Source of the DNA: Takakia lepidozioides
Lineage: Eukaryota; Plantae; Bryophyta
Reading direction: 5' to 3'
DNA length: 64,000 bases
Assembly: GCA_030704615.1 (NCBI GenBank)
Contig: CM060734.1
Span: 20,770,001-20,834,000, forward strand
The position numbers and the translations under genes are program-made. Below are positions 796 through 57,245 of this stretch, one piece after another (position 1 is the stretch's first letter; each line of letters begins with the position of its first letter). Under the pieces are notes generated by a model. The model was given only the letters and a program-made list of their open reading frames with translations. It was not told the origin of the DNA and did not search any database.

Positions 796-1521
796 TGTCG
801 CGGCCCTTTGCCTTGAGGGCAGGGGGTCGGGACGCAGAGGGGCTGCCCCTGTGGTGGGGGCAGTGGCAGCAATAGGTACGGGGGGCTGAAGCACCCTTGA
901 GTGCCCAAGGCACTCAAGGAGGCGGAGGCGCTCACTAGGTGGAGCCCCGCACACCGGGTTGCGGTGGGGGTGGCTCCACAAGGGGTGGTGGTAGCTTAGT
1001 GGGACTTAGTGGGGGATGGCATAGGACTCACCATGGGGCGGAGACCTGGTGGTGGGAGTCGTGGGGAGTCTTGGGACTCACCACGGTCCAATGGGGCTGT
1101 GGTGGGTGGGCCAAGACTCACCGCGACTCATCACCGGGAATCGAGGGTCTTCGTGGTGGTTCGCCATAAAATGGCATGGTTGTTTGTGAAACCCCCGCGG
1201 ACAGTCACATAAGTATATATAGGGAGTAGTAACCCCGAGAATGGTGCAAGCCCGTTGGTGACCAAAAACTAGTGAGTAAGCAAGCGAGCCGGAAAGCGAC
1301 CAAAGAGTGGGGAGCTATTCTGGACTGCCATCTACCAAAGGGAATTTCCACTAGGCCCAAATTGGTGGAGGGTCTGTTGGGGGAAGAAAGGGGGACCGTT
1401 ATGTCCTGGTGAGCAGCCGAAGCTCCGAGTTGGCCCGGCGGCCAGGTTGGGAGTTAGGCGCACGCATCAAAGCGAGTAACTATGACTTGAAGGGGAGCTT
1501 ACCGAAGTGAGGTGCGCGACA
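796..1521 (+). repeat. 5' LTR of A1
   Basis: Termini are TGTCGCG...CGCGACA. Homologous to 34381-35106 and 40617-41338 (reverse complement). Confidence 0.92.
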
Positions 1522-1523
1522 CT

Positions 1524-1535
1524 TGGTATCAGAGC
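1524..1535 (+). promoter_or_regulatory. Primer binding site (tRNA-iMet)
   Basis: TGGTATCAGAGC lies 2 nt after the LTR end. Confidence 0.92.
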
Positions 1536-1576
1536 TTAGAGTTCAGTACGCGATCGTCATTGGGATCGGCCTCATC

Positions 1577-6128: not shown

Positions 6129-6641
6129 TGGGGACATCAACCTTGGAGCATGGGGGAGGAAATGCATGCTTAGCCCGGCTTAGCTAGCTCAAGAATCCGA
6201 TTGCAAAACTTGTATTGTACAAATTTTGTTATAAATGAAATGGTTTCCAAATGTTGTGTGTCATATTTTGTTTGGAATGGTGATGCATGGTTTGGTTGGC
6301 TAGTGTGTAGAATGCATGCTAGCTTACAAAAGTGGGAGAGGTAAATTGGGTTAATCGTGTATTTGCGCAGTGCTAAAATCGGGTGACTCCCACCCAAGGG
6401 GCAAGGAAACTTGCGCCTTCTTTGGGAGTTCACGTGCTAGTTCGCACCTGGCGCGTGCGTGTACTACAACTGCACTACCGAGGGGGTTGTCTTGTAGTGC
6501 GGGCTAACGTGGAAGCTACATGCTTCCGTTCACGTACTATAATCGTGTAGCCTCGGGACGAAGTCGAAGTGCAGCTTCGGCGTGTTCCTGTACCTCAGGC
6601 CAACATTCCAAGGCGGACCCAATTGTAGTGATTAGCGCACC

Positions 6642-7229
6642 ATGGTGACATCTGGAGTTGTCATGTTAGACGCCCAGGATGGCATTTTCTATTTGAGTGG
6701 ACCGAGAAGCAAGAGGTACCGGCCACTGCGAGTCTTGTTGGACTCGGGAGCTCAGCCATTGATGCTGGGCAGAGCTGCTATTGCAGGCTTGGGCCTCACG
6801 GAGGCGGATATGGAGCCGTGCCCTTTCCAGATACAGACATCTCTAGGAGGATTAGAGCAGGCTCAGGGCATGACACGGCGGGAGTTGGGGATCAGACTAC
6901 AGCCGGATCATCCTACAGATGGCTCAGTGATGAGAGCCATGGCCATTGTGACAGACGCGGTCTCGTACGATGTCCTTGTTGGTGGGGGTGTGGTGTACCC
7001 CATGGGCTTCACCCTGGATTTTTTGGAGGAGTCAGCTTCCTATAGGCCTGGATGGCAGTCAGGGGAGGGCCGATGTGTGCAGCTCCCTGTGACGTTCATA
7101 GGAGGAGTTACAGTTGCCCAGCGAGGCAAGATGTCGATACTGACAACATTCACAGCTGCAATGAGTTGGCCTGGAGAGTTGCTTGAGGGCAACGCTCATT
7201 CAGAGGATGTGTCGCCTCCGGGAGAGTAG
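6642..7229 (+). pseudogene. B1 retropepsin aspartic protease region
   Basis: RVLLDSGAQ catalytic motif and a SYDVLVG C-terminal motif. Confidence 0.85.
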
Positions 7230-7458
7230 GATGACATGTATGGTATGGTGGAGTTGCCTGCCATGGTTGCTCACACTCCATTGTGGGGCTCGAGCAAGGA
7301 CTTGCAGCGGGTTGCTGATCGACGGGTGCAACAAGCCTGGGTAGAGGCTTTTGTACCGTCAGGAGAGGAGGACAGTGTAGGGATTGCACTAGGACCACCT
7401 CATTTGTCAGCATTGGACACCACACCGATCGTATGGTAGTGTCCGGATGAAGGCATTG

Positions 7459-8400
7459 GACGTGTTTGGCGGGATCAGCACCGGATTGGCTGTTGTGCTA
7501 CATGCAGGTATATGGGTACGGCGTTACTTGTATGTAGAGAGGGATGAAACTGCACGACGCGTCTCACTCCGTCATGTTGCTCAGTTGGTGCAGTAGTACC
7601 TTGAGTTGTTGCTGGTGTCTGCGGTTCGTGGATATCAACAGGCCTTGCCAGCAGACATTTCGTTGCTGGGGGCACAGGATCTGGAGCGGGTTGGCTCCAT
7701 TGATTTGGTAGTGGCAGGTTGGCCCTGCAAAGGGTATTCATCAATGGCAATGGATTGCGAGACTCGAGGTCGGGTCTGTTTTGGGAGATGGTGCGGGTTT
7801 GCGCCACTTACAGCTTCATCAAGCTGTATCTCCAGCATACATCTTGGAGAATGTGCCACTGATGGGCAATTCTCGGGCCAGGGTGATGGCCAGTGTGCAT
7901 CAAGTCCGGTCGTGGCTTGGGTCAGCAGTGTTGCTGGATGCAGTTGCAGTAGGGTTGCGGGCTCATCGTCCACGATTATGGTGGACTAACTTGATGCCAT
8001 CCGCATTGCTCAAGCGTGCATTTGATGGGGTGCAGCGGCCAGCACACCTCACAGTTGATAGCATCTTAGATACAGGGAGGCAGTCTCAGCATGTGAGACA
8101 CGATGACCCTTCGCCTTTGGCAGTGGTCAACAAGGTGGGTCAACCACGAGCAACACTACCTACACTGCGCAGCTTCCCAGGATCACATGCTTTCCGGGAT
8201 AGTGGATCTGGGCTCCTGTGGGATGCTCACTTGCAGCAGTTAGTGGAGCCTAATGCCGACGAGCAAGAGCGGGCTATGGGTTTTTCTATTGGGACAACGG
8301 CAGTGCCTTCTCTTTCTGAGGCATCACGTCGTCAGGTGTTGGGGCAAGCGATGGATCTCAATTGCTTGACCTGGATTATCAGCTTGGCTATGGCTGAGCA
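7459..8400 (+). pseudogene. B1 C5 cytosine DNA methyltransferase domain (DNMT3-like) inside the polyprotein
   Basis: Manual translation across frameshifts gives motif I DVFGGISTGL, II YLYVERD, III ADIS, IV DLVVAGWPCKG, V GLRDSRSGLFWE, VI YILENV, VIII AHRPRLWWTNL, IX EQERAMGF and X RRQVLGQAMD. Confidence 0.9.
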
Positions 8401-8779
8401 ACGTAGAGTGCGGAGTGCACTCCCCTTGACGGTCTCTCTGCCTACCGAGACGGTACAGGAAGTGGGTGGGGGCGAGCCGGTGAGGACCACGGGGTGTAGA
8501 CATCCATGGCACACGTGGGAGGTGCTCGAGGTTCAGAGGGAGTTGGCAGCCAAGGCGGCTGTGATGGATGAGGTTGGGGATTCTTCTCGGGTTGAGGAGG
8601 TCCTCAAGGATGAGATGATGGGGCAGGATGAGGCCTTGTCATTGACTGAGTAGGCAGGGAGTACTGCTCATGAGGTTGCGGCATAGCAACCTCGGGACGC
8701 GTCTCCTACCTCTAAGTCTGCTGGACTTAATGTTGCAGTTACGGAGGACAATTGAGAGCCTGACATTGGACCCATTATC

Positions 8780-9226
8780 ACTGGAGGAGAGAGACGACGT
8801 ATACGGCGGTTCCTGAGGGCTTACAAGAATTGCTTTGCCTTCAGTTTGAATGATTTGGGAGCACTGAAGGGTCAGGAGATTCGTATTGACGGACACGCTA
8901 ATCTTTCGGAGACCCTATAGATACAGTGACATGGAGAGGTCTTTGATTCAGATGAGGACTCAAGATCTCTGGGAGGCTGGTTTGGTGGAGCTTTCTGGTG
9001 GAAAGTATGCTTCAGCCACGGTGATGCTAGCCAAAAATGATGTCTATGACAATTGGACGGAGAGACGTATGTGCGGTGACTACCGGGCTGTAAATCGTCA
9101 GACCAAGTCCGATAAGTATGCCATGCCCACACCTGAGGAGATCTTTGATGCCATTGGGCATGCCAAGGTCTTTAGCACTCTGGACTTGCAGTCCGGATAT
9201 CACCAGTTGCCGATCAAGGAGGCGGA
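8780..9226 (+). pseudogene. B1 reverse transcriptase, N-terminal half
   Basis: Motifs RRPYRYS, RMCGDYRAVN and FSTLDLQSGYHQLPI. Cut by the B2 insertion. Confidence 0.88.
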
Positions 9227-10019
9227 TGTTATGGTTTTATTTGTGATTAGTTAGAAATAATTATTTCTAACTAATTAGTACATTATATATTTATATTTGT
9301 ATTTTGTTGGCATTGGGACTTCATTTGGTTCCATGTGCCAAGTGAGGTGACGAACCTCACTTAGGACGTGGGGAGGGTGTTGCAAGGTTTGCAAGAAGAA
9401 AGCCTTGTGGTGTTTATGTATTCAAGGAGAGCCTTATTGAAAAGTTTGAGAGCTTGTGAAGAAGCTCTTGTTCTGCAAGTGTTGCAGGGTTTGAGGAGTT
9501 CAAGAAGAGTTCGGGTGTTAAGGAAGCAAGCGGTGCATGTGTGGAGCATGTGTGGAGCATGGTTTCAGCTTGTAGGAGTCTTCAACTTCATGCTTAGGAG
9601 AGCTATGAGTGGAGGTAGACATTTGATTTCTCTTTGGGGCAGAATAGTGTATTTGTGGAGCATGCTTTGAGTTGGGGTTTCAATCCCAAGCTTGGGAAGA
9701 GCATGTCTATGGAAGTGGCAAGTGCAGGGCTGGATTAGGAGCTCTAAGAAGTGAACTATGGCCATAGAAAGAAACACTATGAGTGCATGCGATGGCTCGA
9801 AGAGGGTATGCCATAGAAAGCTCAATAGCTTGTTCTATGTTTGTTTCAATAAGTTCCATAGAGAAAGAGAGCTTGTTGTGTGGCAAATAGCTTGCTCAGG
9901 GAGTTAGATGCACTCTTGGTGGCCTATTGATGCTCAAGAAACCAAGAACAACACCTCTGGTTGCTCCATAGAAGCCATAGCTCGTTGCAGCAATCGCAGA
10001 GGCAAAGCGGCGCAAACCC

Positions 10020-11190
10020 TAGCTTGGGAACGCGTGGGAACGCAAAAGAACGCGTGAGAACGCTTGGGAACTCCTTGGGAACTCGTGGGAACATTGTCCC
10101 AGAGTTGGGAGTACCACCGTTGTCCAATCGGATGAACTATTGAGCCAGTGGATGAAAATCGGCGCTCCTGGATGAGAATCGGTTGCAGTGGATGAAACTG
10201 TGCCAAAGGATGAAATCTCGTCAGCGGATGAAATATTGCGCTATCGGATGAAAAATCACGGCGACGGATGAAACTCCGTCAGTGGATGAAATCGTGGCAG
10301 TGGATGAACTATCGCGCTATCAGAGGAAAAATCACGGCCAGATGAAACTGCATCAGCGGATCAACTATCGTGCCATCAGATGAAAAATCGTGGAGACGGA
10401 TGAAACTGCGCCAGCGGATCAAATCATGCCAGTGGATGAAATATCGCACCGACGGATGAACTATCGCGGCGGATGAAGTATCGGACCTACGGATGAGAAA
10501 TCGCGGTTTTGGATGAAATTTGGTCAGTGACGGATGAAAAATCGATTAACTATGGATATTTTTGGAGTCTTTTGGGGCCTGCTTTGAGGACTATTTGGGG
10601 TCTATTGAGGCCAATATCTTACAGGTATTGGGGCCTGTTTGAGGACTATTTGGGATCTATTGAAGCCAATATCTTGCAGGCTTGTGGAGCCTGCTTGGGG
10701 TTGTTTGAAGGACTATTTGGGGTTTTTTGAGGCCAATGTTTGGCAGGCCTGTGGAGCCTTGTGAGGGCTGGTTGGAGGACGATTGGAGGTCTTTGGAGGC
10801 CCATATTGGGCAGGCTTATGGAGTTTTCTAAGAGCTCTTTGGGGGACTATTGGAGGTCCTTGGGGTCAAATACTTGGCAGATTTGAGGAGCTTCTTAAGG
10901 GCTGTTGGAGGTCCTTGGAGGCCAATATTTGGCAGATTTGATGAGCTTCTTAAGGGCTGTTGGAGGACTATTGGAGGTCCTTGGAGGCCAATACTTGGCA
11001 GATTTGAGGAGCTTCTTAAGGGTTGTTGGAGGACTGTTGGAGGTCCTTGGAGGCCAATACTTGGCAGATTTGAGGAGCTTCTTAAGGGCTGTTTGGAGGA
11101 CTCTTGGAGACCATATTGGGCAAGCTTGTGGAGCTATCGTGAGGGCTGGTTGGAGACCATGGAGGCCACTAATTGGCGGGCGCCTAAGGC
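10020..11190 (+). repeat. Three adjacent tandem arrays in the B2 leader
   Basis: GGGAAC-type ~10-bp units (10020-10105), GGATGAA-anchored ~20-bp units (10130-10545) and TTGGAGG-based 55/66-bp units (10560-11190). A mirror copy lies at about 28780-29860. Confidence 0.85.
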
Positions 11191-11790
11191 CTTTTGGTGG
11201 ACTGTTCAGAGTCCAAGTTTGCGAACTTCTTGAACCTCGGTGGGTCTATGTTAGGGGCTGATTGAGGGCAGATTTCAGAAGTTCATGGCAATAATTTGAG
11301 GGCTCTTGAGAGTTATTTGAGAGGTTATTTAAGGATAGTCTTATCTATTGCTTAAGCAATAGTGAATGTGAAGATAGGGGGAGTAATGGGATAAGAGCAT
11401 TCTGGGCTTAGAGATTGCTTTAGCTTCTCTTCTCTATAGTCTTCCATCATTCTTATAGGCCAAAGCTTTTCCGTAAGCGGATGTAGAGCTGGTTTGGATA
11501 GAGACTTGGCCATCTTGCAAGTTTATTGAAGCCGCAAGGAGATCGATGGATTTAAGCTGTGGGAGATGTTGTTGTTTGAGTTTCCTGTGTTTGGATCCTC
11601 CTCCCACACATGCATGCTTGACTGTGCGCCATGCTAGTTTGGTTTGGGCGCTTGCTTTTATAGGTGGTTGTGCCGGAAATATTGTGGCCGGCCAATCCTA
11701 GAGCGTACTGTCGGTGGTGAGACTGGGGTGATGACCAGCAGACCATCATTGTTTCTCTTATGGTGAGGCTGGGTTGATGACCAGCAGACC

Positions 11791-13611
11791 ATAGGAGTGC
11801 CTGCGGTGGATGCAGGTGCAGGTGCAGGTTCAGAATATGAATCTAGTATTCCAAACCATAAGCCGCAATAGGTTCTCTACCAGGTTACCTTGTGGAAAGG
11901 AGGATTACAGACGAGTTGATCGCCGGTTTGACTGTGAGTTTTCATCACGGAGGTGCCACCAGTTGCTGAGGAGAGTGCCAGTACAAGCACCAGCGATACT
12001 AGTGGGTATACAAGACAAGGTGTGCGGTTTAGGCCACCTTCACCTTCAGTGTCTTCTGAGGAAGGTTCAGACTCAGAGTTAGGAGGATTCTCGCCGAGGG
12101 TGCAAGCCATTTCCGTGCCATTGTTGTGGGATAAAATGGAGGAAATGTATGGAGCTACCAAGGGGCCACGTCGGTACTCGGGAGTTGTGGGCACCATCGA
12201 GCTTGATGATTTCATACAGGAGTTTGATAGTTGGTGTGATTTGCAGCAGATGCGCAATCCACAACTGTTTACGCCTTTTATGGCGTGGAAGGGGCTGTTT
12301 CAGCACCTTGAGGGGCCGCCTATGGATGACTACCATGAGTTTAGGCGGGGAAATGAGGTGGAGATTGAGGAGTGGCGACAATATTGGTCACCTGACTATG
12401 TCTCCATCACTAGAGGCACAAGGGCAGCGGCGATACCAGCTACACCAACATCCCCAACTGCAAGCACTAGTAGTGGGACAAGTAAAGATGGAGCTGGGAA
12501 ATCCACTCAAGCTCCTGTTGCAGCACCAGCACCCGTGCCTGCCTTTAACCCAGTTATGGAGTTCTTTGAGGAGTTGAGGAGAAACTACTAGGGAATAAGG
12601 ACGGAGAAATTGCGGAGCTTGCAAGAGTTCCAGCGCAAGCCTACTGAGAGTTTGAGAGAGGCTTACACGCGCATGAGGCGATTGATAAATGTAACCCAAG
12701 GGGTTACGGAAGCTCAAGCAGTCCAATTCTGGTATGGGATATTGGACAAGGAGCTAAGGAGAAGGGTGCGGGATGCAACTCTCCTACAAGTAGACCAACC
12801 CACCTTAGCAAACGTGTTTTTGCTGGCAGAGCGGATAGAGCTCAATATGGTGGAGGAACGAGTGGTCATGGTGGGGTTTGGTAAGGAGACACAACGAAGT
12901 GGGGCTCCTAGCCAACAACAACCACTACCCCAACGTGCTCAAGGCAACAAGGGGGTTCAGGCGAAGCCCAGGGAAGGACAGAGAGGATCTCAATTGTAGA
13001 GGTCACTTCCTTCATTCTCAGGCCAACAACAGTCGGGTGGGACATGTTGGGATTGTGGAGGACCCCATGTTAAGAGAGATTGCCCGGAGAGAGGCAAAGG
13101 GCCGGCACAGTCACAGCCTACACAACTACAGTATGGGCATTGTGGCAAGTATGGGCATGAAGAGGCCCATTGTTATGACTTGCATCCTGAGCTACGGCCA
13201 GGCCAGTTCCAAGGGAAAAATGGTGGCCGAGGACGAGGCAATGTAGTCCAGAGAGGTAGAGGAGGCAGAAGTCGCGGTGGAGGTTGTAACCAAAACCAAG
13301 GAGCACAAGGTCAAGGTCAAGGTCATGACCAAGGCATGGTGGATAGGCTTGCCCAACTAGAGCAACGTCTTGCTGCCATGGCCACTACTAATGTGGCGTC
13401 AGCTCCAAGGCCTGAGGTTCAAGCCCCACCTGTACAACCTCCTATGCCTAGGGAAGACCAGATTGGTATGGGCTTCATGTGTGGAGCCGCACTTGCTGGA
13501 CCATTGCATGTGGACTGTGCAGCTGCTGTCACTCGAGCAGCAACGCGTGCTCCTGAGCCAAGAGGAGCAGATGTGGATTTTGATCCACAAAGAAGGGAAG
13601 CAAGTCGATAG
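11791..13611 (+). pseudogene. B2 gag with two zinc knuckles
   Basis: The frame-1 reading extends upstream to about 11791 through stop codons that look CGA/CAG-derived. Knuckles CWDCGGPHVKRDC and HCGKYGHEEAHC. Confidence 0.75.
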
Positions 13612-14050
13612 ACAAGGCTTCCACAGTCTTTCACATTGGCTGAGACAGTGCCAACTACGCCATCGATGGTACCGGCTCACCCAAGTGTGTCAGAGGTAGA
13701 GCCACGAGTATCAGTGGGGATAGTTGGTATGGCTCGGGAAATGCCAGTGGGTGGTGCTGTAAAGCAGGGTGCAGCCAGTACGTTGTTGGGCGGCTACGCG
13801 GTTTTGCCAAGCTCCATTGTTTTCTGCGATGACCATTGCAATGCCGGGGATTCGGCCAGCTGCTGTGTTCAGACTAGCAGCTAGACTCTGTGAGAGTGGT
13901 GATGCATCGGCACTATCTGCGGGGATAGCGGATAATGTGCAGTGCATGGATATCATGGACTCAAGGGTGAAGACAGCCACAGCTGCACCATAGCAAGCGG
14001 CAGCTGCAAGGTTGCAGGAGATGTCAGCTAGACCAGCCATTGAGCGTAGT

Positions 14051-14724
14051 ATGGTGACTCCTGGGGTAGTCATGGTGGACAATCAGGATGGTATGTTTTA
14101 GTTGGGTGGCCCAGCCGGGAAGAGGTTTAGGCCACTGCGGGTCTTGTTGGACTCGGGAGCACAACCATTGATGTTGGGAAGAGCAGCAATTGTAGGCTTA
14201 GGCCTTACAGAGGTAGATTTGGAGCCTTGTCCTTTCCACATTCAAACATCTTTGGGCGGTTCAGAGAAGGCACGAGGGATTACACGCAATGAGCTCTTCA
14301 TTCGATTGCAGCCGACCATCCTACGGACGGCTCAGTCATGAGAGCTAAAGCCATTGTTACGGACGCGATGTCTTATGATGTGCTTATTGGTGGGGCTGTG
14401 TTATACCCCATGGGCTTTACTTTGGACTTTTGGGAGGAAACGGCATCCTATATGGCAGAATGGCAGTTAGGAGATGGCCGACGTGCACTGCTCCCAGTGC
14501 GGTTTATTGGGAATGTAGCGGTGGATCATAGGAACATGATGCCCACATTGGCTGCATTATCAGGGGTGGCGGCTTGGGGTGGTGAGCTCTTGGAGGGCAA
14601 TAGCTATGCAGATGATAGGCCATCACCTGATGAGGACAAACAATTGGCATACAAGGCTGATTTGCTTCCTCATGTGCCTGTGCATATTCCACTTGGGGTA
14701 CGGTTGGGAATTTGCATCGAGTAG
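14051..14724 (+). pseudogene. B2 aspartic protease region
   Basis: Motifs RVLLDSGAQPLMLG and SYDVLIG. Confidence 0.85.
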
Positions 14725-14859
14725 CAGGCGAGTGTGTGCACCAAGCATGGCGGAGGCCTTTCCATTGGTGAGTGTGGGGAGTTCAGTGACATCACCTGAA
14801 CCTCCTGAGTTAGCTCCTTTGGACACAGTGCCCATTACTTGGCAACCACCTGACTCAGG

Positions 14860-15815
14860 GATTTATTTGCTAGACCTGTTTGGAGGCATGAGCACTGGGC
14901 TTGCAGAGTGTTGCAAGCAGGGATTAAAGTACGCAAGTATTTGTATAGTAGAAGGACTGAGATTGCTCGGCTATTTCCATGTGCCACATTTCCTGCCTCA
15001 CACACCGTATCTTGAAGAGTGTTGCCCTCTCAACAGTTCAAGGGTATCAAAGGCCTTGGCCCGCAGACATTACCTTGCTGGGAGCGGATATTTGGCAGCG
15101 GCAATGGTCATTACTTGTGAAACCGGATGTGCTTGCCAATACACTCTCCCGCAGTCATGGGAATGGCTTGCATTGATGCACGATCGCATTGTGTTTGTGG
15201 GGAGATGTTGCGAGTGTTGCGGGACTTGCAGACGAAGAATTGCAACCTCTAGGCTACATCTTAGAGAATGTTCCTCTTATGGGGGATTCTCGGGCCAGGT
15301 TATTGCCCTTGTGCATCATGTGCAGTCTTGGATTGGATCGGGCGGTGCTATTGATGCATCACGGTGGATCACGCGCGCATCGTCCTCGATTGTGGTGAAA
15401 CCAATCTTGCACCACCAGAGCTGCTCAAGAGAGCATACATTCCATTCATCGGCCACCCAATCTCACGGTTGAAGGCATTTTGGACCAAGGGAGACAACCA
15501 CAAGGGGTGCGACATGATACCGTTGGCCACCTCTAGCAGTGGTCAAATCGAGTGGGGGGCCAGCCACGGTTGGGGCTTTGCCTACGCGCATGAGCTTTCC
15601 CTCAGCGCATGCTTTTCGAGACAATGGTCCTGGATTGATTTGGACAGTGTGCTACAACCAATTGGTGGAGCCCAATGCGGATGAGCAGAGCGGCAATGGA
15701 ATTTGCCACCGGCACTACAGTATGCCAGCTCTGTCAGAGCATCACGCCGCCAAGTGTTTGGGTCAAGCAATGGACCTAAATTGCTTGACATGGGTCATTG
15801 GTTTGGTGCATGACT
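14860..15815 (+). pseudogene. B2 C5 cytosine methyltransferase domain (heavily frameshifted)
   Basis: Motifs IYLLDLFGGMSTGLA, PADIT, GYILENVPLMG, SRAHRPRLW, EPNADEQ and LGQAMDLNCLTWVI. Motif IV is garbled (GCACQ). Confidence 0.82.
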
Positions 15816-16289
15816 GAGGCAACGGAGATTGCAAGCATTGATGGCTACTCTGTCACTCCATTGGATATGCATCGCTCCTCCCTGCCTAACCGGACGGTGG
15901 AGGACAGTGAGTGGGGGCGAGCACAGGATCGTGGGTTGCAAATACCATGGCAGATGTTGGGATGAGATGCACAAGAGAGAGTCATTGGATCTCTCAAGCA
16001 GCAGTATGAGGAGTGGGGAGAGCCATGGACTGAGGATCAGTTGGAGGCCAAGGTGACCAAGGTTTTTGAAGAGGTTTGTAGGATGTTTCTTGCGCATAGG
16101 ATGTCTCAAGGTGGCTATGGCGGAAGCAAGTGGAGGCTACGCCATCAGTCAGATTGGGCGGACAAGCCCAAAAGGGTTGCTATCTAGCAACCAAGGATTC
16201 GTCTCCTACCTCCAAGCCTGGGTACCCAAGGTTGCAGTCACTGAGGACAATTGGGAACCAGATGTTGGATCTACAGTCACCCAAGAGAG

Positions 16290-19280
16290 AGACGGAGGAT
16301 CCAACAATTTTCTAAGGGCTTATAGAATTGCTTTGCCTTCAGTTTGAAGGATTGGGGAGTTTGAAAGGTCAGGAGTTCGTATTGATTTGGCAATGACACG
16401 CGCCAATCTTTCAAAGGCCCTACCGGTATAGTGACATGGAGAAGTCATTGATCCAGTCACGGACTTTGGAGTTGTTCAAAGCTAGATTGGTGGAGTTGTC
16501 AGATGGGGGTATGCCTCGCAACGGTGATGCCAGTTAAGAAGGATATCTAATGGCATTGGACAGAAAGAAGGATGTGTGGGGACTATCGTCCTGTGAACCG
16601 TCAGACTAAGTCCGATAGATATGCCATGCCAACTCCAAAGGAGATCTTGATACCATTGGGCATGCCAAGGTGTTTAGCACATTGGACTTGCGATCCGGTT
16701 ACCACCAGTTGCCATTCCATCAAAGGGCTGACAAACAAAAGACACATTCTGGGGATTGACCAACATGGGAAGGATTGTTTTACCAATGGCATTTCTTACC
16801 ATTTGGGTTGAAGAATGCTCCTGCAGAGTTTCAAAGGGTCATGGATAAGATTCTCGCGGGGCTAGACTTTGTCCGGTGCTATATTGATGACATCATTGTC
16901 TTTTAGTGCTACGGTTGAGGATCATGAGAGACACCTTCAGGTGGTGTTTCAGCGCTTGAGCGCACGAGGGTTGAAAACTGCACCCCGAAAGTGCAAGTTC
17001 TTCCACAATCAGAATTGTATCTGGGCCACATGATATACCCTGGAGGTTGGGTGTTCAATAGACAAAGGTGGAGGCCATTGGCATGGCATTCCACGCCCCA
17101 TGGATGTGAGCCATAGTTTCGTGTTTTCATGGGATTGACAAACTACTATCGACGGTTGGTCAAGGGATTTAGCAACATTGCAAAGGCTCTTACCAAGTTG
17201 ACAAAGGTGGGTCAGGAGTGGCAGTGGGGGAGGAGCAGGAGGAAGCCTTTGAGGAACTCAATGTTCGATTGACTTCTGCTGCACCTATGTTGAGGCGGCC
17301 TAGTTCGGGGGCGGTCTTTTCCATCTACATACGGATTTGAGTATGCTGGGGATTGGAGCAGTGCTCACACAGGTGGATGATGAAGGAAGGGGTTCGTAGT
17401 GGCATATGCTAGCCGCTCGAACAATGATGCCGAGGCGAAGTATAGTTTCCTATGAAGGGAGCGTCTAGCTGCAGTATGGGCATTGGCACATTTCAGATAT
17501 GGCAATCTCTTCAATCTCTTCACCCTTGTCACGGATCACCAACATTGAAGTGGTTGATGGAGTCAGACAAGCTTACAGGAAGCTTGCTCGGTGGGCTACT
17601 TATGCTTCAAGAGTACGACTTCCAGGTGGTGCATCGAGCCGGTATTGTCAATCGGATGCAGATGGATTGGGTCGTAATCCATGCACAGCGAGCATGATGA
17701 TATTGGAGCTCGTTGGCATGGTGAGACGGATGAAGATGGTGCCAGGATGGCATGCATCGGCCTTTTTTGTGCATTCTAGCAATGGGAGCTCAAGCTGGTT
17801 CATCCCATGCGATTGGTCATGTAGATAGCGTGCATGACAATCCAGAGACTAGTGAGAAGTTTTGGTGGTGCTAAGGATGTGCATGAAAGGCAACAGTGTT
17901 TGGCATACCTTCGTACCGGAGAGACAGCAGCTAGTGTGACTGCTAAGGAGAGAGATCCGGTCCTAACAACGAGCCAAGAGGTTCAAGTGGGAGGGGACTC
18001 ATCTACTCCGGGTATGGGAGGATGGACGAGTGGGATTGTGCCTCATCCAATACAACGAGTGCGATTGTACGCCATGCCCATGAGGAGTTGGACATTTTTG
18101 GTCGGCGCACTCATAGTTTGCTGCAAGGGCAGTAATTGGTGGCGGGGCATGCACACGGATGTGCAACCAGTTAGTGGCAAGGTGCATGGTGTGTGATAGA
18201 GTACGGGCTTCTTTCAACGCTCCTACTCCACAATTGCATCCTTTACACCATTATGGGTTTGGGCTATCGTTGGAGTCCTGACTTTTCAGGCCCATTGCCA
18301 CTGACAATCGCCATAACAAGTATGTGCTGGTGATGGTGGAACACTTCTCCAAATGCATTGAACTGGTGGCATTGCCTGACAAGGCAAGTGAGGGGGTTGC
18401 GTATGCATTCTTAGATTGAGTGCTTAGCCATTTTAGTGCTCTAGCCGAGGTACTCACGGACCAGGGGAGAGAGTTCTTGGGGGAGTTTCAGGCTTTGTGT
18501 GAGCAAGCCTTGATAGATCACCGCACTACTTCTTGGGATCATCCTGAGGCTGATGGCTTGCGGAGAGAGTTGTTCAGACAGTCAAGAGAGGTTTGCGCAA
18601 GTACGGTTTGCAGAAGGGACACCTAGGAGATTGGGACCTGCAACTGCCTTGGCTAGCTATGGGCTATAGGTTCAGCAAACAAGCTTCACTTGCCTCCTTC
18701 TCACCTTACTTTTCTTTCTTTCGGCCGAGAGCCGGATTTGCCTGCATCTATGATCCGGATGTGTGGAACAAGCATGTGCCCAGCGAGCAGAGTTGTTCAA
18801 GAGAGTCATGCCTATGGCTTTTGAGAACCTTGCATTGCCCAACACTGAGACACATTGAGGTACGTCACTATACGTGGAGGGGGATATTGGCCAAGTGTTT
18901 GGCGTTTCCACCCTGGGGACTATGTGTATCTGTAGCAGACAACGCCTACGACCTTGGATGTCACAGCAGGACGTGTGATTCTAAGGGTTAGGGAGGTGTT
19001 GCCTTCAGGAGTGTTGATTCAGGAGGGTCGAGATGGCATGGTATGGAAGGACCATATGCGCAATTGTGCGCCATGTCACCTTCCACATGTGGATGTGAAG
19101 ATAGATTCTAACCTTGCAGTGGTACCTGCAGGGTTGCGTTGCATGCTATGTGGGCATGCTGGTGGCGCCGCAACCATGTTGGTGTGTGACAAATGCTCAA
19201 GGGGGTGGCACATGGATGCTTGACACCGCCACTTGAGGAGGTTCCTATCGGAGAATGGTTTTGTCCACGATGCCTTGGAC
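16290..19280 (+). pseudogene. B2 RT - RNase H - integrase - PHD finger (many indels)
   Basis: Motifs [37 protein letters not shown] and LRCMLCGHAGGAATMLVCDKCSRGWH...EWFCPRC. Confidence 0.85.
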
Positions 19281-19540
19281 AGAGGCAGTGGGCATGACAA
19301 TGGTGAGGCGCAAGTGACCCAAGGTCTACTAGTGGGGCTTCAATGCCACGGATACTCACTGAAGATCATGGATTGTATGAAGGCGACTAAGATGGGACTA
19401 ACGTTTGCACCCGGCCACTTGATCTATCGACTTCAGGTGTTGGGACTTGTGCGATTGAAGACCAAGCGATGATCTTATTGGGGTAGATACTTGCAAGCTA
19501 TCCGGTGTTAGAGGGACCTAATCACCAGCTAGGGGGCGAT

Positions 19541-19626
19541 TGTGGCGTGGCTTTCTTAGGACTATATGCTAGAAGTGTGGTTGGGACAGCGATGTATGTT
19601 GTGGCACGATGCTTAGGTGCACGACA
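19541..19626 (+). repeat. Repeat X copy 1 (~86 bp, TG...CA), directly after the PPT
   Basis: Sequence tgtggcgtgg...gtgcacgaca recurs at 19977-20061. Confidence 0.85.
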
Positions 19627-19628
19627 GC

Positions 19629-19975
19629 TATCATGGTTTTATTTGTGATTAGTTAGAACTAGTTATTTCTAACTAATTAGGATATTATACATTTATATTT
19701 GTATTTTGTTGGCATTGGGACTTCATTTGGTTCCATGTGCCAAGTGAGGTGGCGAACCTCACTTGGGACGTGGGGAGGTTATCTCCACGTGAGACGTAGG
19801 CAGGCTCGTCTTCTTCTAGTCGAGCCTCCCGAGGCCTCTCTCGCCGCCATAGCTCTAGTACTTGAGATGGAGAGTGGGTGAGGTCTGTATGGTGGAGTCC
19901 TTTAGCAAGGTGCCATTGGCTTGACTTATATAACGTGATAGAGTGGTTTCTCCTCTTTTCACCATTTCTGTATCA
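19629..19975 (+). repeat. Internal copy of the 5'-terminal repeat C of B2
   Basis: Matches the sequence from 9227 onward and the reverse complement of about 30598-30944. Contains TATATAA near 19927. Confidence 0.85.
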
Positions 19976-19976
19976 T

Positions 19977-20061
19977 TGTGGCGTGGCTTTCTAGGACTAT
20001 ATGCTAGGAAGTGTGGTTGGACAGCGATGTATGTTGTGGCATGATGCTTAGGTGCACGACA
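19977..20061 (+). repeat. Repeat X copy 2, the 3' terminus of B2
   Basis: Direct repeat of 19541-19626, followed by the TSD CGGA. Confidence 0.85.
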
Positions 20062-22457
20062 CGGACAAACAGAAGACGGCATTCTGGGGGAAGAACGCTT
20101 GAGAGCGCACAGATTGAAATTACATCCAGGGAAGTGCAAGTTCTTTCACAACTAGATTGAGTATCTGGGCCACATGATATATCCTGGAGGATTGGGGATG
20201 CAGCAGACTAAGGTAGAGCCATCGCACAGATTCCACGCCCCACGGATGTGAGCCGAGTTCGAGCTTTCATGGGGTTGGCGAACTACTATAGACGGTTCGT
20301 CAAGGGATTTAGTGCTATTGCAAAGGCTCTAACCAGCTGACCAAGGTAGACCAAGAGTGGCAGTGGGAAGATGAGCAAGAGCGAGCTTTTCAGGAGCTCA
20401 AGGCGAGGTTGACCTCGACGCCCATCTTGAGACGACCTATCAGGGGGCGTCCCTATCAGCTGCATACAGATTGGAGCATGCTGGGGCTTGGAGCGGTGCT
20501 CACACAGGTGGATGATGAGGGAAGAGAGTTCGTAGTGGCTTATGCTAGCCGCTCAAACAACGCTGCAGAATCTAAGTATAGCTCATATGAGGGGGAGTGC
20601 TTAGCTGTAGTGTGGGCCATGACACACTTCAGGTGCTATCTATACGGCAATCTCTTCACCTTTGTCACGGATCACCAGCCACTCAAGTGGTTGATGGAGT
20701 CAGACAAGCTTACGGGGAAGCTTGCACGGTGGGCACTTATACTCCAGGAGTATGACTTTCAGGTTGTGCATCGACCGGGTTTGGTCAATAGGGATGCGGA
20801 TGGATTGAGTCGCAATCCATGCACAAGCCAGCATGATGACACTGGAGCTCGGTGGCATGGTGAGACGGATGAGAAGATGGTGCCGGGATGGCATGCATCT
20901 GTTTTTTTTTGTATTTTGGCATCGGGAGGTCAGGTTGGACCTACAATAGGGATGACTGTAGACGGAGTGTCTGAGGACCCTAAGGCTAGTGATGAGCCAG
21001 GTGGTGCCAGAGATATACATGAGGATTCGGTTGTGTTGGACTACCTCTGCACTGGAGACACGGTAGCTAGTGTGACTGCCAAGGAGAGGGATCGGATCCT
21101 GCAACGAGCCAAGAGGTTCAAGTGGGAGGGGATACACCTGCTTCGAGTGTGGGAGGATGGTTGGGTGAGGATCGTGCCTCACCCAACACAGCGTGCACGA
21201 TTAGTGCGGCATGCCCATGAGGAGTTGGGGCATTTTGGAGTGCGACGCACTCATAGTTTACTGCAAGGGCAGTATTGGTGGCGTGGTATGCACACATAGG
21301 TGCAACAGTTCGTGGCTAGGTGCATGGTGTGTGACAGGGTGCATGCTTCATTCAACGGCCCTACACCATAGTTGCATCATTTACCCATCATGGGATTGGG
21401 CTACAGGTGGAGTCTTGACTTCGCAGGGCCGTTGCCACTGACGATGCGCCACCACAGATATGTGTTGCTGATGGTGGAGCACTTCTCCAAGTGGATTGAG
21501 TTGGTTCCATTGCCTGACAAGGCTAGTGAGGGGGCTGCGTATGCATTCCTGGATCGTGTGCTTAGCTGATTCGGTGCTCCAGCTGAGGTACTCACGGACC
21601 AAGGAAGAGAGTTCTTTGGGGAGTTTCAGGCTTTATGTGATAAAGCCTTGATAGACCACCGTACCACTTCTCGGGATCATCCTGAGGCCGATGGCTTGGC
21701 AGAGAGAGTGGTACAGACGGTGAAGAGGGGCTTGCGCAAGTATGGCTTGCAAAAGGGACACCTAGGAGATTGGGATCTTCAGGTACCTTGGTTAGCCATG
21801 GGCTACAGGTTTAGCAAGCAAGCATCACTTGCCTCCTTCTCACCATATTTCCTTCTCTTTGGCCGAGAGCCGGATTTGCCTGCATCTATTCGCAGGGAGG
21901 CTGCAGTAGTCCTCAACCTTGATGATCCGGATGTGTGGACACAAGCATGTGCCCAGCAGGCAGAGTTGTTCAAGAGAGTCATGCCTATGGCTTTTGAGAA
22001 TCTTGCTATTGCCCAACACCGAGACACATTGAGGTATGCCACTATACGTGGAGGGGGATATCGGCCAGGTGTTCGGCGTTTCCACCCTGGGGACTATGTG
22101 TATCTGCAGCAGACAATGCCTACGACCTTGGATGTTACAGCAGGACGTGTGATTCTAAGGGTCAGGGAGGTGTTGCCTTCAGGAGTGTTGATTCGGGAGG
22201 GTCGAGATGGCATGGTATGGAAGGACCATGTGCGTGATTGTGCGCCATGTCACCTTCCACATGTGGATGGGAGGATAGATCCCAACCTTGCAGTGGTACC
22301 TGCAGGGTTGCGTTGCATGCTATGTGGGCATGCTCGTTGTGCCGCCACTATGCTGGTGTGTGATCGATGCTCAAGAGGTTGGCACATGGGATGCTTGACA
22401 CCACCTCTTGAGAGGGTCCCTGATGGAGATTGGTTATGTCCACACTGCTTGGGATAG
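20062..22457 (+). pseudogene. B1 RT tail (catalytic core deleted near 20090), RNase H, integrase and C-terminal PHD finger
   Basis: KTAFWG jumps directly to RLKLHPGKCKF. Then LHTDWS, AYASRS, EGECLAV, HEELGHFG...CMVC, SLDFAGP, LTDQG, GLAER and a C4HC3 PHD at 22314-22448. Confidence 0.9.
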
Positions 22458-22718
22458 TGGCAGTGGATATGACTAGTGGCAGCTAACAAGACATGGGAGG
22501 CCAAGCTCATAGGAGTCAATACCCGAGATCTCAGGCTCAAGTTCATAGGTTGCAAGACGGCGACTAACGATGGGGTAACTCTTGTACCCGGCCTCTCGAT
22601 CTATCGAGTTTGAGTGTAGTAGGGACAGTGGTGGAGGACTTAGTGAGGCTATGGCCACTATCACATCTTGTGACTACCTGGACTTAGAGGGACCTAAGCG
22701 CGAGCTAGGGGGGGTGAT

Positions 22719-22948
22719 TGTGATGGACTAGTGGCTGCACTAGTGGTGGACTAGTGGTTGCACTAGTGGTGGCTAGTGACAGCCTAGTGGTGGGCTAGTG
22801 GCTGCACTAGTGGTGACTAGTGGTTGTCTAGTGGCAGCCTAGTGGTGCACTAGTGGTGGACTAGTGATAGACTAGTGTTTGGTGTGCACATGTGTTGTGT
22901 GGTTTTGGACAGCGATGTAGTTATGTAGCGATATGTATGTGCACGATA
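22719..22948 (+). repeat. 3' terminal repeat/LTR of B1 containing a CTAGTGG array
   Basis: Follows the PPT AGGGGGGGTG (22707-22716). Its 3' part (ggacagcgatgta...gtgcacgata) is homologous to repeat X. Confidence 0.75.
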
Positions 22949-23919
22949 GATCAATGGTCTTACAATAATCTCTCATTCCCTCTCTCTCATCCCAGGTTTA
23001 TTTCTCTCGAGATCGGATCAAACTATCATGGGCACTCTCAAAGATTGCTTGCCCTTGGCAGATGCAAAAGAGCACCAGAAGTGCAGAGCGTGTGAGGTTT
23101 TTCTTGATAGCTCGTATGTTGGAGGTAGTTCGATTTAAGTTACTCCAGTCCTGATCATGAAGACGACAACAGGAAGAGCTGTAGGTCGCAAGGGCAGGGC
23201 AGGTTCATCGGGCGCCACCGCTTTGAGCAACACGAGTTATCTACAAGAGTTGATTAAGAAAACAACGGATGTGGGCATATTGAAGAAGGAGTCTCATTTC
23301 TTCCTAAAGACGGTTTTTCAAAGCTCGATGGCCTAGCGCCCCCACCGGGAGAGAGGGAGAGAGGGAAGATATATTTGTCATGTCAAGACAAAGACAAAGA
23401 CAAGACCACTAGGGTCTTTGTCAATAAAAGAAGAGACATGTCAGCCACTTTATAGTGGCACCATCCATCAATCATCAAACTGGAACATCAAACTAGAATT
23501 TCCTTCATACACCATATTAAAATTAAAATCATAGGTAAGGGTGGGATGGTGGGCTCTCATCCACACCATGCATTCATACCTGCAGCTGCAAATCACAGTA
23601 CATGATATAGCAAAAACACCACATTTACACCACATCTGACCATGTTTTTACACCATGCCAGGGGAGAGGTCTCTTTCAAACTTCCTAGCTGCTTCAAAAA
23701 ACCAGTAACCATTAATGACAAAGCAAAGAGCTTGAGACAAAGCAAAACAAGGCCTACAAACTGATGTGTGTGTCCCACACGAACAACCATAATCTTTGCC
23801 GTCATTGCCAGGTTTGTTATCAAGCTGAAAGCCAAGTAAACCAGGGCCAAAAAACTGATGTGTGTGTCCCACAAACCATCATAATCTCTGCCATCATTGT
23901 AAGGTTAACCAGGGCCTAA

Positions 23920-27624: not shown

Positions 27625-28242
27625 TATAACCTACTCTTGACTGGTCCTCTTCCCAATCGTGCTTGCTCATGCATGTACACAATCTGAAACCGTGCCCTGG
27701 AATTACCTGCAGCATGGTGCTTTCATCTCTGAAGCTGAAGATGGAATGCCAAGGTCTACCACCTCGTAACCCACATCGCCTCCGCTTCTAACAATCAAGA
27801 GCTCCACGGTGTTCCTTGCATAACAACTTGGTTTCTCTCATTCTCAAGCAAAAACCACAAGTGCTACAACTAACTCGTATCTGGCACTCACAGATACGAG
27901 CTGATCTTTCTCAAGTGATAAAGAAGAAGAATACAAGCACAAGCTTATGCGACCTCACAAAGCTGAAGCATAAACTCATGCATATATAACCTCATCACTC
28001 AAATACAAGTCAAGCAAAGTGCACCCCACGCCATGGGGAATCCACACTACGGCGCCATAGCTAGGCGCGGTGAGGCTCAACTCGAGAAAGATGAGCCTCC
28101 CGCGCTTGCCGTGAAGATAACCACTCCAGGGCCTAAATTTGCCTTGACCCCTGGATTGACACTTGGGCCAATCCCAAATGTCAATATGTAAAAGCTAGCT
28201 ATTTCCTAGCTAGTTTCACACTAGTGGTAAAATAACTTGACA
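27625..28242 (-). mobile_element. Terminal fragment D, a distant relative of repeat C
   Basis: Starts TGTCAAG on the minus strand. Has a subterminal hairpin and patchy similarity to C (gctcatc...gagcctc, gcttgactt). Confidence 0.5.
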
Positions 28243-30944
28243 CCCCAGCCTCACCACCGACAGCACGCTCTAGGATTGGCCGGCCACAATATTTCCGACA
28301 CAACCACCTATAAAAGCAAGCGCCCAAACCAAACTAGCATGGCGCACAGTCAAGCATGCATGTGTGGGAGGAGGATCCAAACACAGGAAACTCAAACAAC
28401 AACACCTCCCACAGCTTAAATCCATCGATCTCCTTGCGACTTCAATAAACCTGCAAGATGGCCAAGTCTCTATCCAAACCAGCTCTGCCTCCGCTTACGG
28501 AAAAGCTTTGGCCTACAAGAATGATGGAAGACTATAGAGAAGAGAAGCTAAAGCAATCTCTAAGCCCAGAATGCTCTTATCCCATTACTCCTCATATCTT
28601 CACACTCACTCTTGCTTAAGCAATAGATAAGATTATCCTTAACCTCTCAAATAACTCTCAAGAGCCCTCAAATTATTGCCATGAACTTCTAAAATCTGCC
28701 CTCAATCAGCCCCTAACATAGACCCACCAAGGTTCAAGAAGTTCGCAAACTTGGACTCTAAACAGTCCACCAAAAGGCCCTAGGCGCCCGCCAATTAGTG
28801 GCCTCCATGGTCTCCAACGAGCCCTCACAATGGCTCCACAAGCCTGCCCAATATGGCCTCCAAGAGTCTTCCAAACAGCCCTTAAGAAGCTCCTCAAATC
28901 TGCCAAGTATTGGCCTCCAAGGACCTCCAATAGTCCTCCAACAGCCCTTAAGCGTTCCTCAAATCTGCCAAGTATTGGCCTCCAAGGACCTCCAACAGTC
29001 CTCCAAAGAGCTCTTAGAAAGTTCCATAAGTCTGCCCAATATGGGCCTCCAAGAACCTCCAACCGTCCTCCAACCAGCCCTCACAAGGCTCCACAAGCCT
29101 GCAAAACATTGGCCTCCAAGGACCTCAAATAGTCCTTCAAACAGCCCCAAGCAGGCTCCACAAACCTGCAAGATATTGGCTTCAATAGACTCCAAAATCA
29201 AGCAGGCCCCAATACCTGCAAGATATTGGCCTCAATAGATCCCAAATAGTCCTCAAAGCAGGCCCCAGAAGGCTCCAAAAATATCCATAGTCAGTCGATT
29301 TTTCATCCGTCACTGCCCAAATTTCATCCAAAACCGCAATTTCTCATCCGGAGGTCGGATACTTCATCCGCCGCGATAGTTCATCCGTCGGTGCGATATT
29401 TCATCCACTGGCGCAGTTTCATCCGATGGCACGATAGTTCATCTGCTGACGCAGTTTCATCCGTCGCTGCGATTTTTCATCCGATAGGACGATAGTTCAT
29501 CCGCTGCCACGATTTCATCGGCTGACGCAGTTTCATCCGTCGCCATGATTTTTCATCCGATAGCGCGATAGTTCATCCGCTGACGATATTTCATCCACTG
29601 GCGCAGTTTCATCCGTTGCCGCAATTTTTCATCCGATAGTGCGATAGTTCATCCGCTGACAAGATTTCTGCAACCGATTCTCATCCAGAAGCGCTGATTT
29701 TCATCCACTGGCTCAATAGTTCATCCGATTGGACAATGGTGGTGCTCCCAACTCTGGGGCAATGTTCCCACGCGTTGCTATGCGTTCCCACAAGTTCCCA
29801 AGCGTTCTCATGCGTTCCCTTGAGTTCCCAAAGAGTTCACACACATTCCCAAGCGTTCCCAAGCTAGGGTTTGCGCCGCTTTGCCTCTGCGATTGCTGCA
29901 ACGAGCTATGGCTTCTACGGAGCAACCAGAGGTACTGTTCTTGGTTTCTTGAGCATCAATAGGCCACCAAGAGTGCCTCTAACTCCCTGAGCAAGCTATT
30001 TGCCACACAACAAGCTCTCTTTTTCTATGGAACTTATTGAAACAAGCATAGAACAAGCTATTGAGCTTTCTATGGCATACCCTCTTCTAGCCATCGCATG
30101 CACTCATAGTGTTTCCTTCTATGGCCATAGTGCACCTCTTAGAGCTCATAATCTAGCCCTGCACTTGTTACTTCCATAGACATGCTCTTCCCAAGCTTGG
30201 GATTGAAACCCTAACTCAAAGCATGCTCTACAAATACACTATTCTGCCCCAAAGAGAAATCAAATGTCTACCTCCACTCATAGCTCTCCTAAGCTTGAAG
30301 TTGAAGACTCCCACAAGCTGAAACCATGCTCCACACATGCACCACTTGCTTCCTTAACACCTGAGCTCTTCTTGAACTCCTCAAACCCTGTAACACTTGT
30401 AGAACAAGAGCTTCTTCACAAGCTCTCAAACTTTTCAATGGGGCTCTCCTTGAATACATAAACACCACAAGGCTTTCTTCTTGCAAACCCTGCAACACCT
30501 TGTAACTTAAGAGCCATCTACCCAGCTCTCTTCCACACACAAGTGCTAACTATGCTAACACCTTGCACTCATAGATGTAAGCAGGTCTTCTTCTAGTGAT
30601 ACGGAAATGGTGAAAAGAGGAGAAACCACTCTATCACGTTATATAAGTCAAGCCAATGGCACCTTTGCTAAAAGACTCCACCATACAAACCTCACCCACT
30701 CTCCATCTCAAGTACTAGAGCTATGGCGACGAGAGAGGCCTCGGGAGGCTCGACTAGAAGAAGACGAGTCTGCCTACGTCTCACGTGGAGATAACCTCCC
30801 TACGTCCCAAGTGAGGTTCGCCACCTCACTTGGCACATGGAACCAAATGAAGTCCCAATGCCAACAAAATACAAATATAAATGTATAATGTCCTAATTAG
30901 TTAGAAATAACTATTTCTAACTAATCACAAATAAAACCATGACA
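28243..30944 (-). mobile_element. Second copy of the B2-type 5' terminus and leader (repeat C plus tandem arrays), abutting the PPR pseudogene
   Basis: Reverse complement of about 9227-11730, and retains ~290 bp that are deleted in the plus-strand copy. Confidence 0.88.
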
Positions 30945-40561: not shown

Positions 40562-40616
40562 GATGAGGCCAATCCCATGGACGATCGCGTACTGAACTCT
40601 AAGCTCTGATACCAAG

Positions 40617-53128: not shown

Positions 53129-53149
53129 CTCCCACTCAATTAAACCATA

Positions 53150-57190: not shown

Positions 57191-57245
57191 GTTCTCTCAA
57201 TCTCAACTACCAACTCTCTCCTAGAGAAGAATGGCTCTGATACCA

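Follow-up and report, generated by a model that had tools for sequence, protein, structure and literature searches.

The window analysed here, the whole stretch of DNA under study, comprises 64 000 nucleotides of the bryophyte Takakia lepidozioides (GenBank assembly GCA_030704615.1, contig CM060734.1, positions 20,770,001 to 20,834,000, forward strand). It holds two diverged copies of a Ty3/Gypsy retroelement, elements B1 and B2, and the 5′ part of a third copy (Table 1). Element B2 is inserted within the RT of element B1, and a duplication of CGGA flanks the insertion. As the RT frame of B1 resumes at 20062, the stretch from there to 22948 is the 3′ half of B1; the 4-bp duplication and the continued frame rule it out as a third element. 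The stretch 9377-11730 was also considered as a separate insertion, but it is the leader of the family. Repeat A1 of element B2 matches both A2 and the copy on the minus strand (30944-30795) at 95% identity. Elements of this family are abundant in sequencing of this organism, with 59470 contigs of one run lying on 9000-23000.

Table 1. Elements of the family in the window, with their parts (positions count from the first nucleotide of the window)
Feature	Position	Strand	Remarks
Element B2, whole	9227..20061	+	A1-leader-gag-PR-DNMT-stop-RT-RH-IN-PHD-PPT-B1-A2-B2; TG...CA ends
Left 4-bp target-site duplication CGGA, within RT of element B1	9223..9226	+	B1 RT frame continues past right copy
Right 4-bp target-site duplication CGGA of element B2	20062..20065	+	
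Repeat A1, left terminus of element B2	9227..9376	+	3′ half and primer site deleted in this copy
Element B2 long 5′ leader, tandem repeats of ~67 and 76 bp	9377..12135	+	85-88% to minus-strand copy 30499-28241
Element B2 gag, Zn-knuckle-like and Gly-rich region	12136..13690	+	tblastn with Marchantia P0008, 49%
Element B2 aspartic protease (PR), LLDSGA, D at 14150	14060..14514	+	Relatives match Asp_protease_2
Element B2 DNMT3-like C5 cytosine methyltransferase domain	14855..15808	+	Frameshifted as assembled; frameshift-aware alignment to Marchantia P0008
Element B2 in-frame stop TAG then CAA CCA	16185..16193	+	Likely readthrough site between Gag-PR-DNMT and RT
Element B2 reverse transcriptase (YIDD at 16880) and RNase H	16378..17701	+	Frameshifted
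Element B2 integrase: HHCC, DDE core, C-terminal part	18006..19115	+	Pfam Integrase_H2C2 on B1 copy; rve on relatives
Element B2 C-terminal PHD finger	19137..19279	+	Pfam PF00628, two frames; E 2.5e-9 on B1 copy
Element B2 polypurine tract (PPT)	19527..19537	+	Immediately 5′ of repeat B1
Repeat B1 of element B2, 86 bp, TG...CA	19541..19626	+	87/93 aligned bases identical to repeat B2
B/A junction, near-palindrome of CA-GC-TG type	19623..19632	+	Proposed attachment site
Repeat A2 of element B2, 347 bp	19629..19975	+	12-nt motif at 19808 complementary to primer site
Repeat B2, right terminus of element B2	19977..20061	+	
Element B1 gag	171-796	+	Interrupted by chromovirus 797-6633
Element B1 middle part: PR-DNMT-stop-5′ RT	6634..9226	+	
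Element B1 DNMT3-like domain, GWPC at 7717	7449..8389	+	3 frameshifts, 1 stop
Element B1 in-frame stop TAG CAA CCT	8684..8692	+	Upstream of RT
Element B1 3′ part: remaining RT (with deletion), RH, IN, PHD, PPT (22703), single B repeat (22719-22948)	20062..22948	+	
Third family copy, 5′ part only: complete A, self-priming site, leader	28241..30948	-	

The window has other occupants. A conventional Gypsy element, likely a chromovirus, is present in two copies 92% alike, at 34381-41338 (minus strand) and 797-6633 (plus strand). The minus copy has 726-bp LTRs that are 99% identical, a tRNA-type primer site and a 5-bp duplication, and ~880 bp separate its 3′ LTR from a purine-rich tract that follows the coding region. 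The plus copy lies within the gag of element B1, with which it shares a deletion. Decayed tandem PLS-type PPR repeats occupy 30940-33400; their edge is where the third family copy has inserted. A copia element with long ORFs and LTR-like repeats 98% identical lies at 52822-57545 (minus strand). At 46075-48530 there are 36/72-bp repeats rich in purines, together with a zinc-knuckle ORF, which probably belong to another retroelement. A host gene at 60133-62007 (minus strand) consists of one ORF and encodes a RING E3 ligase of RMA/RNF5 type; in trees it groups neither with mosses plus liverworts nor with seed plants, and lies at low resolution near lycophyte sequences.

The first-pass annotation of this DNA reported a second, diverged copy of the methyltransferase in the same position as in element B1, and this is correct. 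The domain of element B2 lies between PR and RT of a Ty3/Gypsy element and keeps, between the Asp codon of PR and the YIDD of RT, all four motifs that had been named: DLFGG (F at 14879), ENVPLMG (E at 15264), AHRPRLW (R at 15381 and 15387) and LGQAMDLNCLTW (15758-15793), spread over two reading frames. DLFGG had been described as common to both copies; this holds for B2, but B1 reads DVFGG. The catalytic motif, omitted from that description, is GWPC in B1 (7717-7728); B2 as assembled has GCAC there, with a frameshift on either side, and retains the Cys codon at 15134. A non-permuted order with PC, ENV and RxR is complete in B1, while B2 has Cys, ENV and RxR but AC for PC. The two domains are 70.6% identical in DNA (645/913 aligned bases; alignment score 445, best of 20 shuffles -190) and 61% identical in amino acids over 182 clean codons.

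As assembled, the 317 codons of the B2 domain contain 13 frameshifts (10-23 depending on penalty and reference) but no stop. The RT of the same element has 12 in 281 codons and its RNase H nine in 160, the same density; loci of the family in metagenomes have ~0.2 frameshifts and one stop per 100 codons. Among the 12 of 19 rows listed, short-read contigs of at least 92% likeness mostly lack the indels of B2 where they span them. The depth without the indel is 13252/13270 at 15153 but only 19120/65924 at 14905, and, as the best sequencing run contains a fraction of 0.22 of the sequence words, the contigs represent close family members and not the B2 locus, so that they are no proof of assembly error in B2. 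Local long-read errors are the likely cause of the frameshifts. Element B2 is a broken-as-assembled copy of a Ty3/Gypsy lineage that has Gag, protease and DNMT3 in its first ORF and occurs in seed-free land plants.

With the C-terminal half of the B1 domain as query, 44 proteins were found among 2294 candidates. The best relatives, at 69-74% identity, are Calypogeia and Marchantia proteins; those of Riccia and of three species of Sphagnum rank lower. A family profile built from 16 of these relatives placed all DNMT3A/3B/3C chains of the PDB first (E 1.5e-19 to 9e-15; DNMT3A 1.5e-19), followed by DRM (2e-9) and then by bacterial C5 methyltransferases and DNMT2. The predicted structure of an intact relative, P0002 (pLDDT 66.8, pTM 0.74), matches DNMT3A with an E value of 8.7e-16. 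The halves of the B1 domain used alone gave weak matches, to DNMT3 chains only, and the window's own DNMT fragments gave no match to Pfam DNA_methylase, for which intact relatives alone score. By the sequence and modelled fold of the intact relatives, the domain would belong to DNMT3 rather than to DNMT1, DNMT2, DRM or the bacterial enzymes. It shares with DNMT3A/3B and the plant host DNMT3, as these are described in the accessible text of PMC6453930, the linear motif order I-IV-VI-VIII-X, and they are its best sequence and fold matches. It differs from them in being intronless and inside a retroelement, with no DUF3444, PWWP or ADD found, and it is only ~21% identical to DNMT3A in the fold alignment.

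The motifs were followed through 54 metagenome loci, B1 and B2; most of the loci come from one close subfamily and two (L039 and L042) are the same insertion, so counts over loci are not independent. FGG is retained in 47 of the 49 sequences that cover it, PC in 49/53 and ENV in 44/56. Motif VIII RxR is intact in just 28/56, its losses being chiefly to H, C or Q, the pattern that CpG decay would be expected to leave. The enzyme is probably active in the intact relatives.

A stronger claim of the first-pass annotation was that the domain had been retained long term through retrotransposition and was not a one-off gene capture. The comparison of dN/dS that it proposed, between this domain and RT, has been made, and neutral evolution was not seen. 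Between B1 and B2, dN/dS is 0.19 for DNMT (95% bootstrap 0.09-0.32; 182 codons, breaks masked), 0.13 for RT (0.07-0.23; 132 codons), 0.22 for RNase H (95 codons) and 0.12 for integrase (278 codons), with gag at 0.12, PR at 0.16 and the PR-DNMT linker at 0.33. Over 30 alignment settings, DNMT ranged from 0.11 to 0.26 and RT plus RNase H from 0.15 to 0.19. For DNMT, pN/pS is 0.40 in frame and 1.11 and 1.78 in the off-frame controls. The domain is therefore constrained, somewhat less than RT; uncorrected pN/pS is 0.45 for DNMT against 0.23 for RT plus RNase H (difference CI 0.10-0.35), but the corrected difference includes zero. The DNMT dS, close to saturation at 1.74, qualifies the estimate. 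When element B1 is compared with the metagenome loci, median dN/dS is 0.12 for DNMT and 0.09 for RT. We are all but certain that DNMT is a selected trait of the element family. Read from sequence, constraint of this kind would show past function in the lineage and not activity of copy B2. In the C-terminal part of integrase (18432-19115 against 21570-22289), pS between B1 and B2 is 0.24, against 0.68 in DNMT, and recombination between subfamilies is suggested there.

A captured passenger in neutral decay, shared by the two copies merely through recent descent, would account for the 13 frameshifts and the damaged catalytic motif of B2, and for the close loci (dS under 0.3), where the median dN/dS of DNMT, 0.58, is above the 0.44 of RT. 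The RT and RNase H of B2 are frameshifted just as densely, however, and the low dN/dS is found at a dS of 1.74, near saturation. Differences between the two domains fall 58/39/104 by codon position (p 6e-8), and the domain is 57-74% identical in named liverworts across most of the query. The chance that it is such a passenger is very small, and the neutral reading appears by now largely refuted.

The same domain order is found in Marchantia, Calypogeia, Riccia, Sphagnum and the 54 metagenome loci. Trees were made for 24 elements, namely B1, B2, nine hand-chosen loci of the 54 passing the length filter and 13 two-domain proteins; both trees hold element domains only, and that of RT-RH is a quick tree. 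The DNMT and RT-RH trees give identical groups: B1 with B2; Marchantia with the main metagenome subfamily; L023; then P0059 with a distant clade. The RT of B1 and B2 stands on a branch apart from the chromovirus of the window. Such congruence points to one ancient capture, inherited afterwards. Long-term retention thus stands, as dN/dS, the wide distribution and the congruent trees speak against a recent passenger, while the denial of a one-off capture holds in that sense only, a single ancient capture being indicated. In the distant clade, a sister Gypsy clade, DNMT lies between RNase H and integrase and a PHD finger is also present, so that the position between PR and RT is fixed in the B1/B2 clade only. 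Proteins of this second clade are P0057, P0058, P0063, P0068 and P0071 and, by alignment, P0064-P0067 and P0070 of Haematococcus, one member being from a chlorophyte. Another protein, P0069 (1417 aa), combines a related C5 methyltransferase with a Dam adenine methyltransferase. Among viral contigs there was no relative, none of 24 pattern matches being confirmed.

The DNMT domain is followed by an in-frame stop. Of 56 sequences scored for the first in-frame stop upstream of RT, 40 had an alignable RT start, and TAG or TAA followed by CAA is conserved in 37 of these. The misses are L046, L048 and B2, the last because of a frameshift, as its TAG CAA CCA is present. Two Marchantia proteins, P0006 and P0008, terminate after the same linker; in L023 the reading frame is open for 766 codons past the stop, and P0059 is a single ORF without it. 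An in-frame stop after DNMT makes Gag-PR-DNMT3 a single ORF, and expression of RT-RH-IN-PHD would then likely depend on readthrough, a route that we hold to be reasonably probable. TMV likewise has an in-frame UAG then CAA between two replication ORFs in a plant, and its readthrough requires UAG-CAR-YYA, according to the accessible text of PMC2754532; in the elements the second codon is mostly CCC or CCT, and the strict CARYYA context occurs only in L020, L023 and B2, with a looser fit in the remaining sequences. Reinitiation, or a spliced or separate mRNA, could supply the RT ORF instead, and most loci do read CAA-CCC-ATG after the stop, where the ATG permits reinitiation. We consider this unlikely; B1, B2, L020 and L023 keep CAA-CC but lack the ATG, and RT shares the frame of the stop. 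By readthrough or by reinitiation alike, DNMT is made together with Gag.

The ends of the elements are unusual. They run A-coding-PPT-B-A-B (B2, L012, L027, L030, L042, L047, L050) or A-coding-PPT-B (B1, L018, L020, L048, L052); L005 is cut by a contig end, and L034 and L040 are rearranged. No left end is preceded by B, either in the loci (0/15, L039 and L042 being one insertion) or in the window (0/4). Outside A1 and the last B there is a 4-bp duplication, exact in six of the seven elements with both ends (CGGA, AAGG, CATA, TCTC, CACA, TACA) and matching at three of four bases in the seventh. The duplication lies outside repeat B2, which rules out A as the LTR of another family with B as its neighbour; the same ends in independent assemblies and the normal LTRs of the window's chromovirus rule out an assembly artefact. 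The B/A junction is a palindrome, GACA-GC-TGTC, or a decayed form of it, and is perfect as GACAGCTGTC in L005, L012 and L042. The A2/B2 junction has the bases that precede B at the PPT, is of the CA-GT-TG or CA-AT-TG type in 5/8 cases, and contains filler in L030 and primer-site bases in L034.

A motif at 163-179 of A has its complement in the sequence that directly follows A1. Perfect complements of 12, 12 and 16 nt occur in three different sequence versions, with control maxima of 7-8, and the third family copy folds for self-priming (z -3.49). A complement of at least 9 nt was found in only 10 of 22 A copies with leader-type sequence behind, two of the 10 having it at another position. Further A-type left ends, of other subfamilies, lie at 63246-63670 (plus strand), 46053-45640 (minus) and ~28240-27870 (minus), each with its own primer site behind, complementary to a motif inside A (in the third, 11/12 by eye).

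The enzymes and signals are those of Ty3/Gypsy: the order gag-PR-RT-RH-IN, a DDE integrase, a PPT, a primer site, TG...CA termini and a short duplication. The two complete matching end LTRs of a canonical element are missing, the ends being A and B, and the family is thus Gypsy by its enzymes but no canonical LTR element. The integrase carries a PHD finger where that of a chromovirus has a C-terminal chromodomain. The DDE integrase and 4-bp duplications set the elements apart from DIRS/Ngaro, and no tyrosine recombinase domain was found in them. Their duplications do not follow the NCGN target preference reported for the Phygy clade in the accessible part of PMC6317226. Self-priming Tf1/Tcn1-type Gypsy elements, on the evidence of that same text, also have a primer site complementary to a motif within the LTR, with no tRNA; the present elements differ in their split ends and in having a PHD finger in place of a chromodomain.

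Our overall account, which we hold with modest confidence, is of a Gag-protease-DNMT3 lineage in which methylation of the element's own newly made DNA is likely, as is integration by way of a circular intermediate. Element RNA would start inside A and self-prime as in Tf1. Most ribosomes would stop after DNMT, so that the enzyme would be packaged at the level of Gag, and readthrough of UAG-CAA would give RT-RH-IN-PHD. Where the primer site follows A and the PPT precedes B, ordinary reverse transcription is bound to leave B+A at each end, and the linear cDNA would be of this form. None of the inserts starts with B, so linear B+A ends cannot be what the integrase uses. The DDE integrase would instead nick after each CA of the internal palindrome B-CA.GC.TG-A. 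A 2-LTR circle opened at the B/A palindrome would become A-coding-B-A-B, the A2/B2 joint being the ligated circle junction; a 1-LTR circle opened in the same way, or both junctions of linear DNA, would give A-coding-B. Single-B copies can alternatively originate by later B-B recombination. To integration by junction opening we would give an even chance. A symmetric CA-nn-TG junction as integrase substrate was the circle-junction model of Panganiban and Temin (1984), as related in the accessible part of PMC11054761, according to which the model was disproved for retroviruses in favour of linear DNA. The present elements differ in that their junction is inherited and sits within the LTR, and its use is indicated by the order of the ends in the genome.

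Split ends might also be copied whole from an RNA running from A1 to B2. Whole-RNA copying with the internal junction as template has been proposed for elements of the DIRS/Ngaro type; here the internal B1-A2 junction would template both ends, with no end-joined 2-LTR circle. The repeat order is one that de Mendoza et al. call DIRS-typical in the available text of PMC5890265, and the CA-GT-TG or CA-AT-TG bases at A2/B2 could be inherited. The PPT lies directly before B1 and the self-priming site directly after A1, however, as in ordinary LTR reverse transcription, and the DDE integrase, the 4-bp duplications, the lack of any tyrosine recombinase found and the filler and primer-site bases at A2/B2 in L030 and L034 all argue against such copying, which we judge to be a minority prospect.

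Once packaged, DNMT3 would place de novo methylation on the cDNA, probably in CG or CHH, and the insert would arrive pre-marked; the PHD finger may steer the element to chromatin. To self-methylation of this kind we would give slightly better than even odds. The CG observed/expected ratio is 0.48-0.60 in these elements, 0.82 and 0.89 in the chromoviruses, 0.32 in the copia element and 0.57 in the window; being below the chromoviruses yet above copia and near the window, it is no specific footprint of self-methylation. Alternatively, the Gag-level DNMT3 acts on the host, methylating or shielding chromatin in trans, or binds nucleic acid without catalysis. The absence of CG depletion specific to these elements fits this, as do the place of DNMT in the abundant first ORF and the inactivity of the isolated Klebsormidium domain in yeast (PMC5890265, accessible text). 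Against it, the catalytic Cys and ENV are conserved, the sister clade has the domain within Pol, beside the cDNA, and related SymbioDIRS Dnmt3 domains methylate CG de novo, by the same part of PMC5890265; we think a host target improbable. In its most specific form, the self-methylation reading is of a widespread green-plant lineage with its integrase attachment site moved inside the LTR, which would open the palindromes of 1- and 2-LTR circles and whose Gag-packaged DNMT3 would methylate the circle before insertion; this we offer tentatively, at somewhat below even chance.

The closest described element is KnitGypsy-Dnmt3 of Klebsormidium nitens, from de Mendoza et al. 2018, whose repeats follow the DIRS order and whose Dnmt3 is under purifying selection, with Ka/Ks below 0.2; its isolated DNMT gave no methylation in yeast, a result that the authors call inconclusive (PMC5890265, available text). 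Gypsy context, a non-permuted Dnmt3, purifying selection and the order A-coding-B-A-B are common to the two. Both features that mark that lineage, a Dnmt3 in a Gypsy polyprotein under purifying selection and A-coding-B-A-B (here in B2 and six loci), are thus present, the likeness being to the published description and not to K. nitens sequence. The host here is a land plant, and DNMT ends a stop-closed Gag-PR-DNMT ORF, whereas that of KnitGypsy is placed in the Pol ORF; the accessible text on KnitGypsy gives no target duplications, self-priming, junction palindrome or mechanism. Protein searches and three supplements of PMC5890265 contained no named K. nitens match.

Transposon-borne cytosine methyltransferases have so far been described from dinoflagellates and a charophyte alga, and an opinion paper by Morozov et al. 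2019 held methylase-encoding transposons to be absent from land plants such as tracheophytes (PMC6338049). Streptophyte DNMT3 elements are mentioned, with land-plant copies unnamed, in the accessible parts of a 2026 preprint (10.64898/2026.05.21.726589) and PMC12344493, whose supplementary trees may hold some. The family is not described in the accessible parts of PMC6453930, PMC6317226, PMC10952607, PMC9516144, PMC2864245 and 10.1101/2024.09.22.614159. A literature search, with most subscription papers outside its reach, returned no account of copies in land plants, of the stop or of the way the elements integrate; within the accessible texts the repeat order was found in print for Klebsormidium only, with no mechanism. 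A known kind of element is here extended to land plants, and the DNMT trait itself is less surprising than the conserved stop or the split ends and their target duplications. If the ends reflect junction-opening by a DDE integrase, they would be a natural exception to the rule of linear-DNA integration for LTR elements. As Marchantia, a genetic model, has ORFs with complete Gag-PR-DNMT3, and intact DNMTs of the Mp4g09160 or Mp8g17980 type, it offers a way to test why an enzyme of silencing should be retained by a transposon. A DNMT3 encoded by transposable elements could confound bryophyte methylation mutants, and LTR finders that need two matching ends would likely miss or mis-trim such elements.
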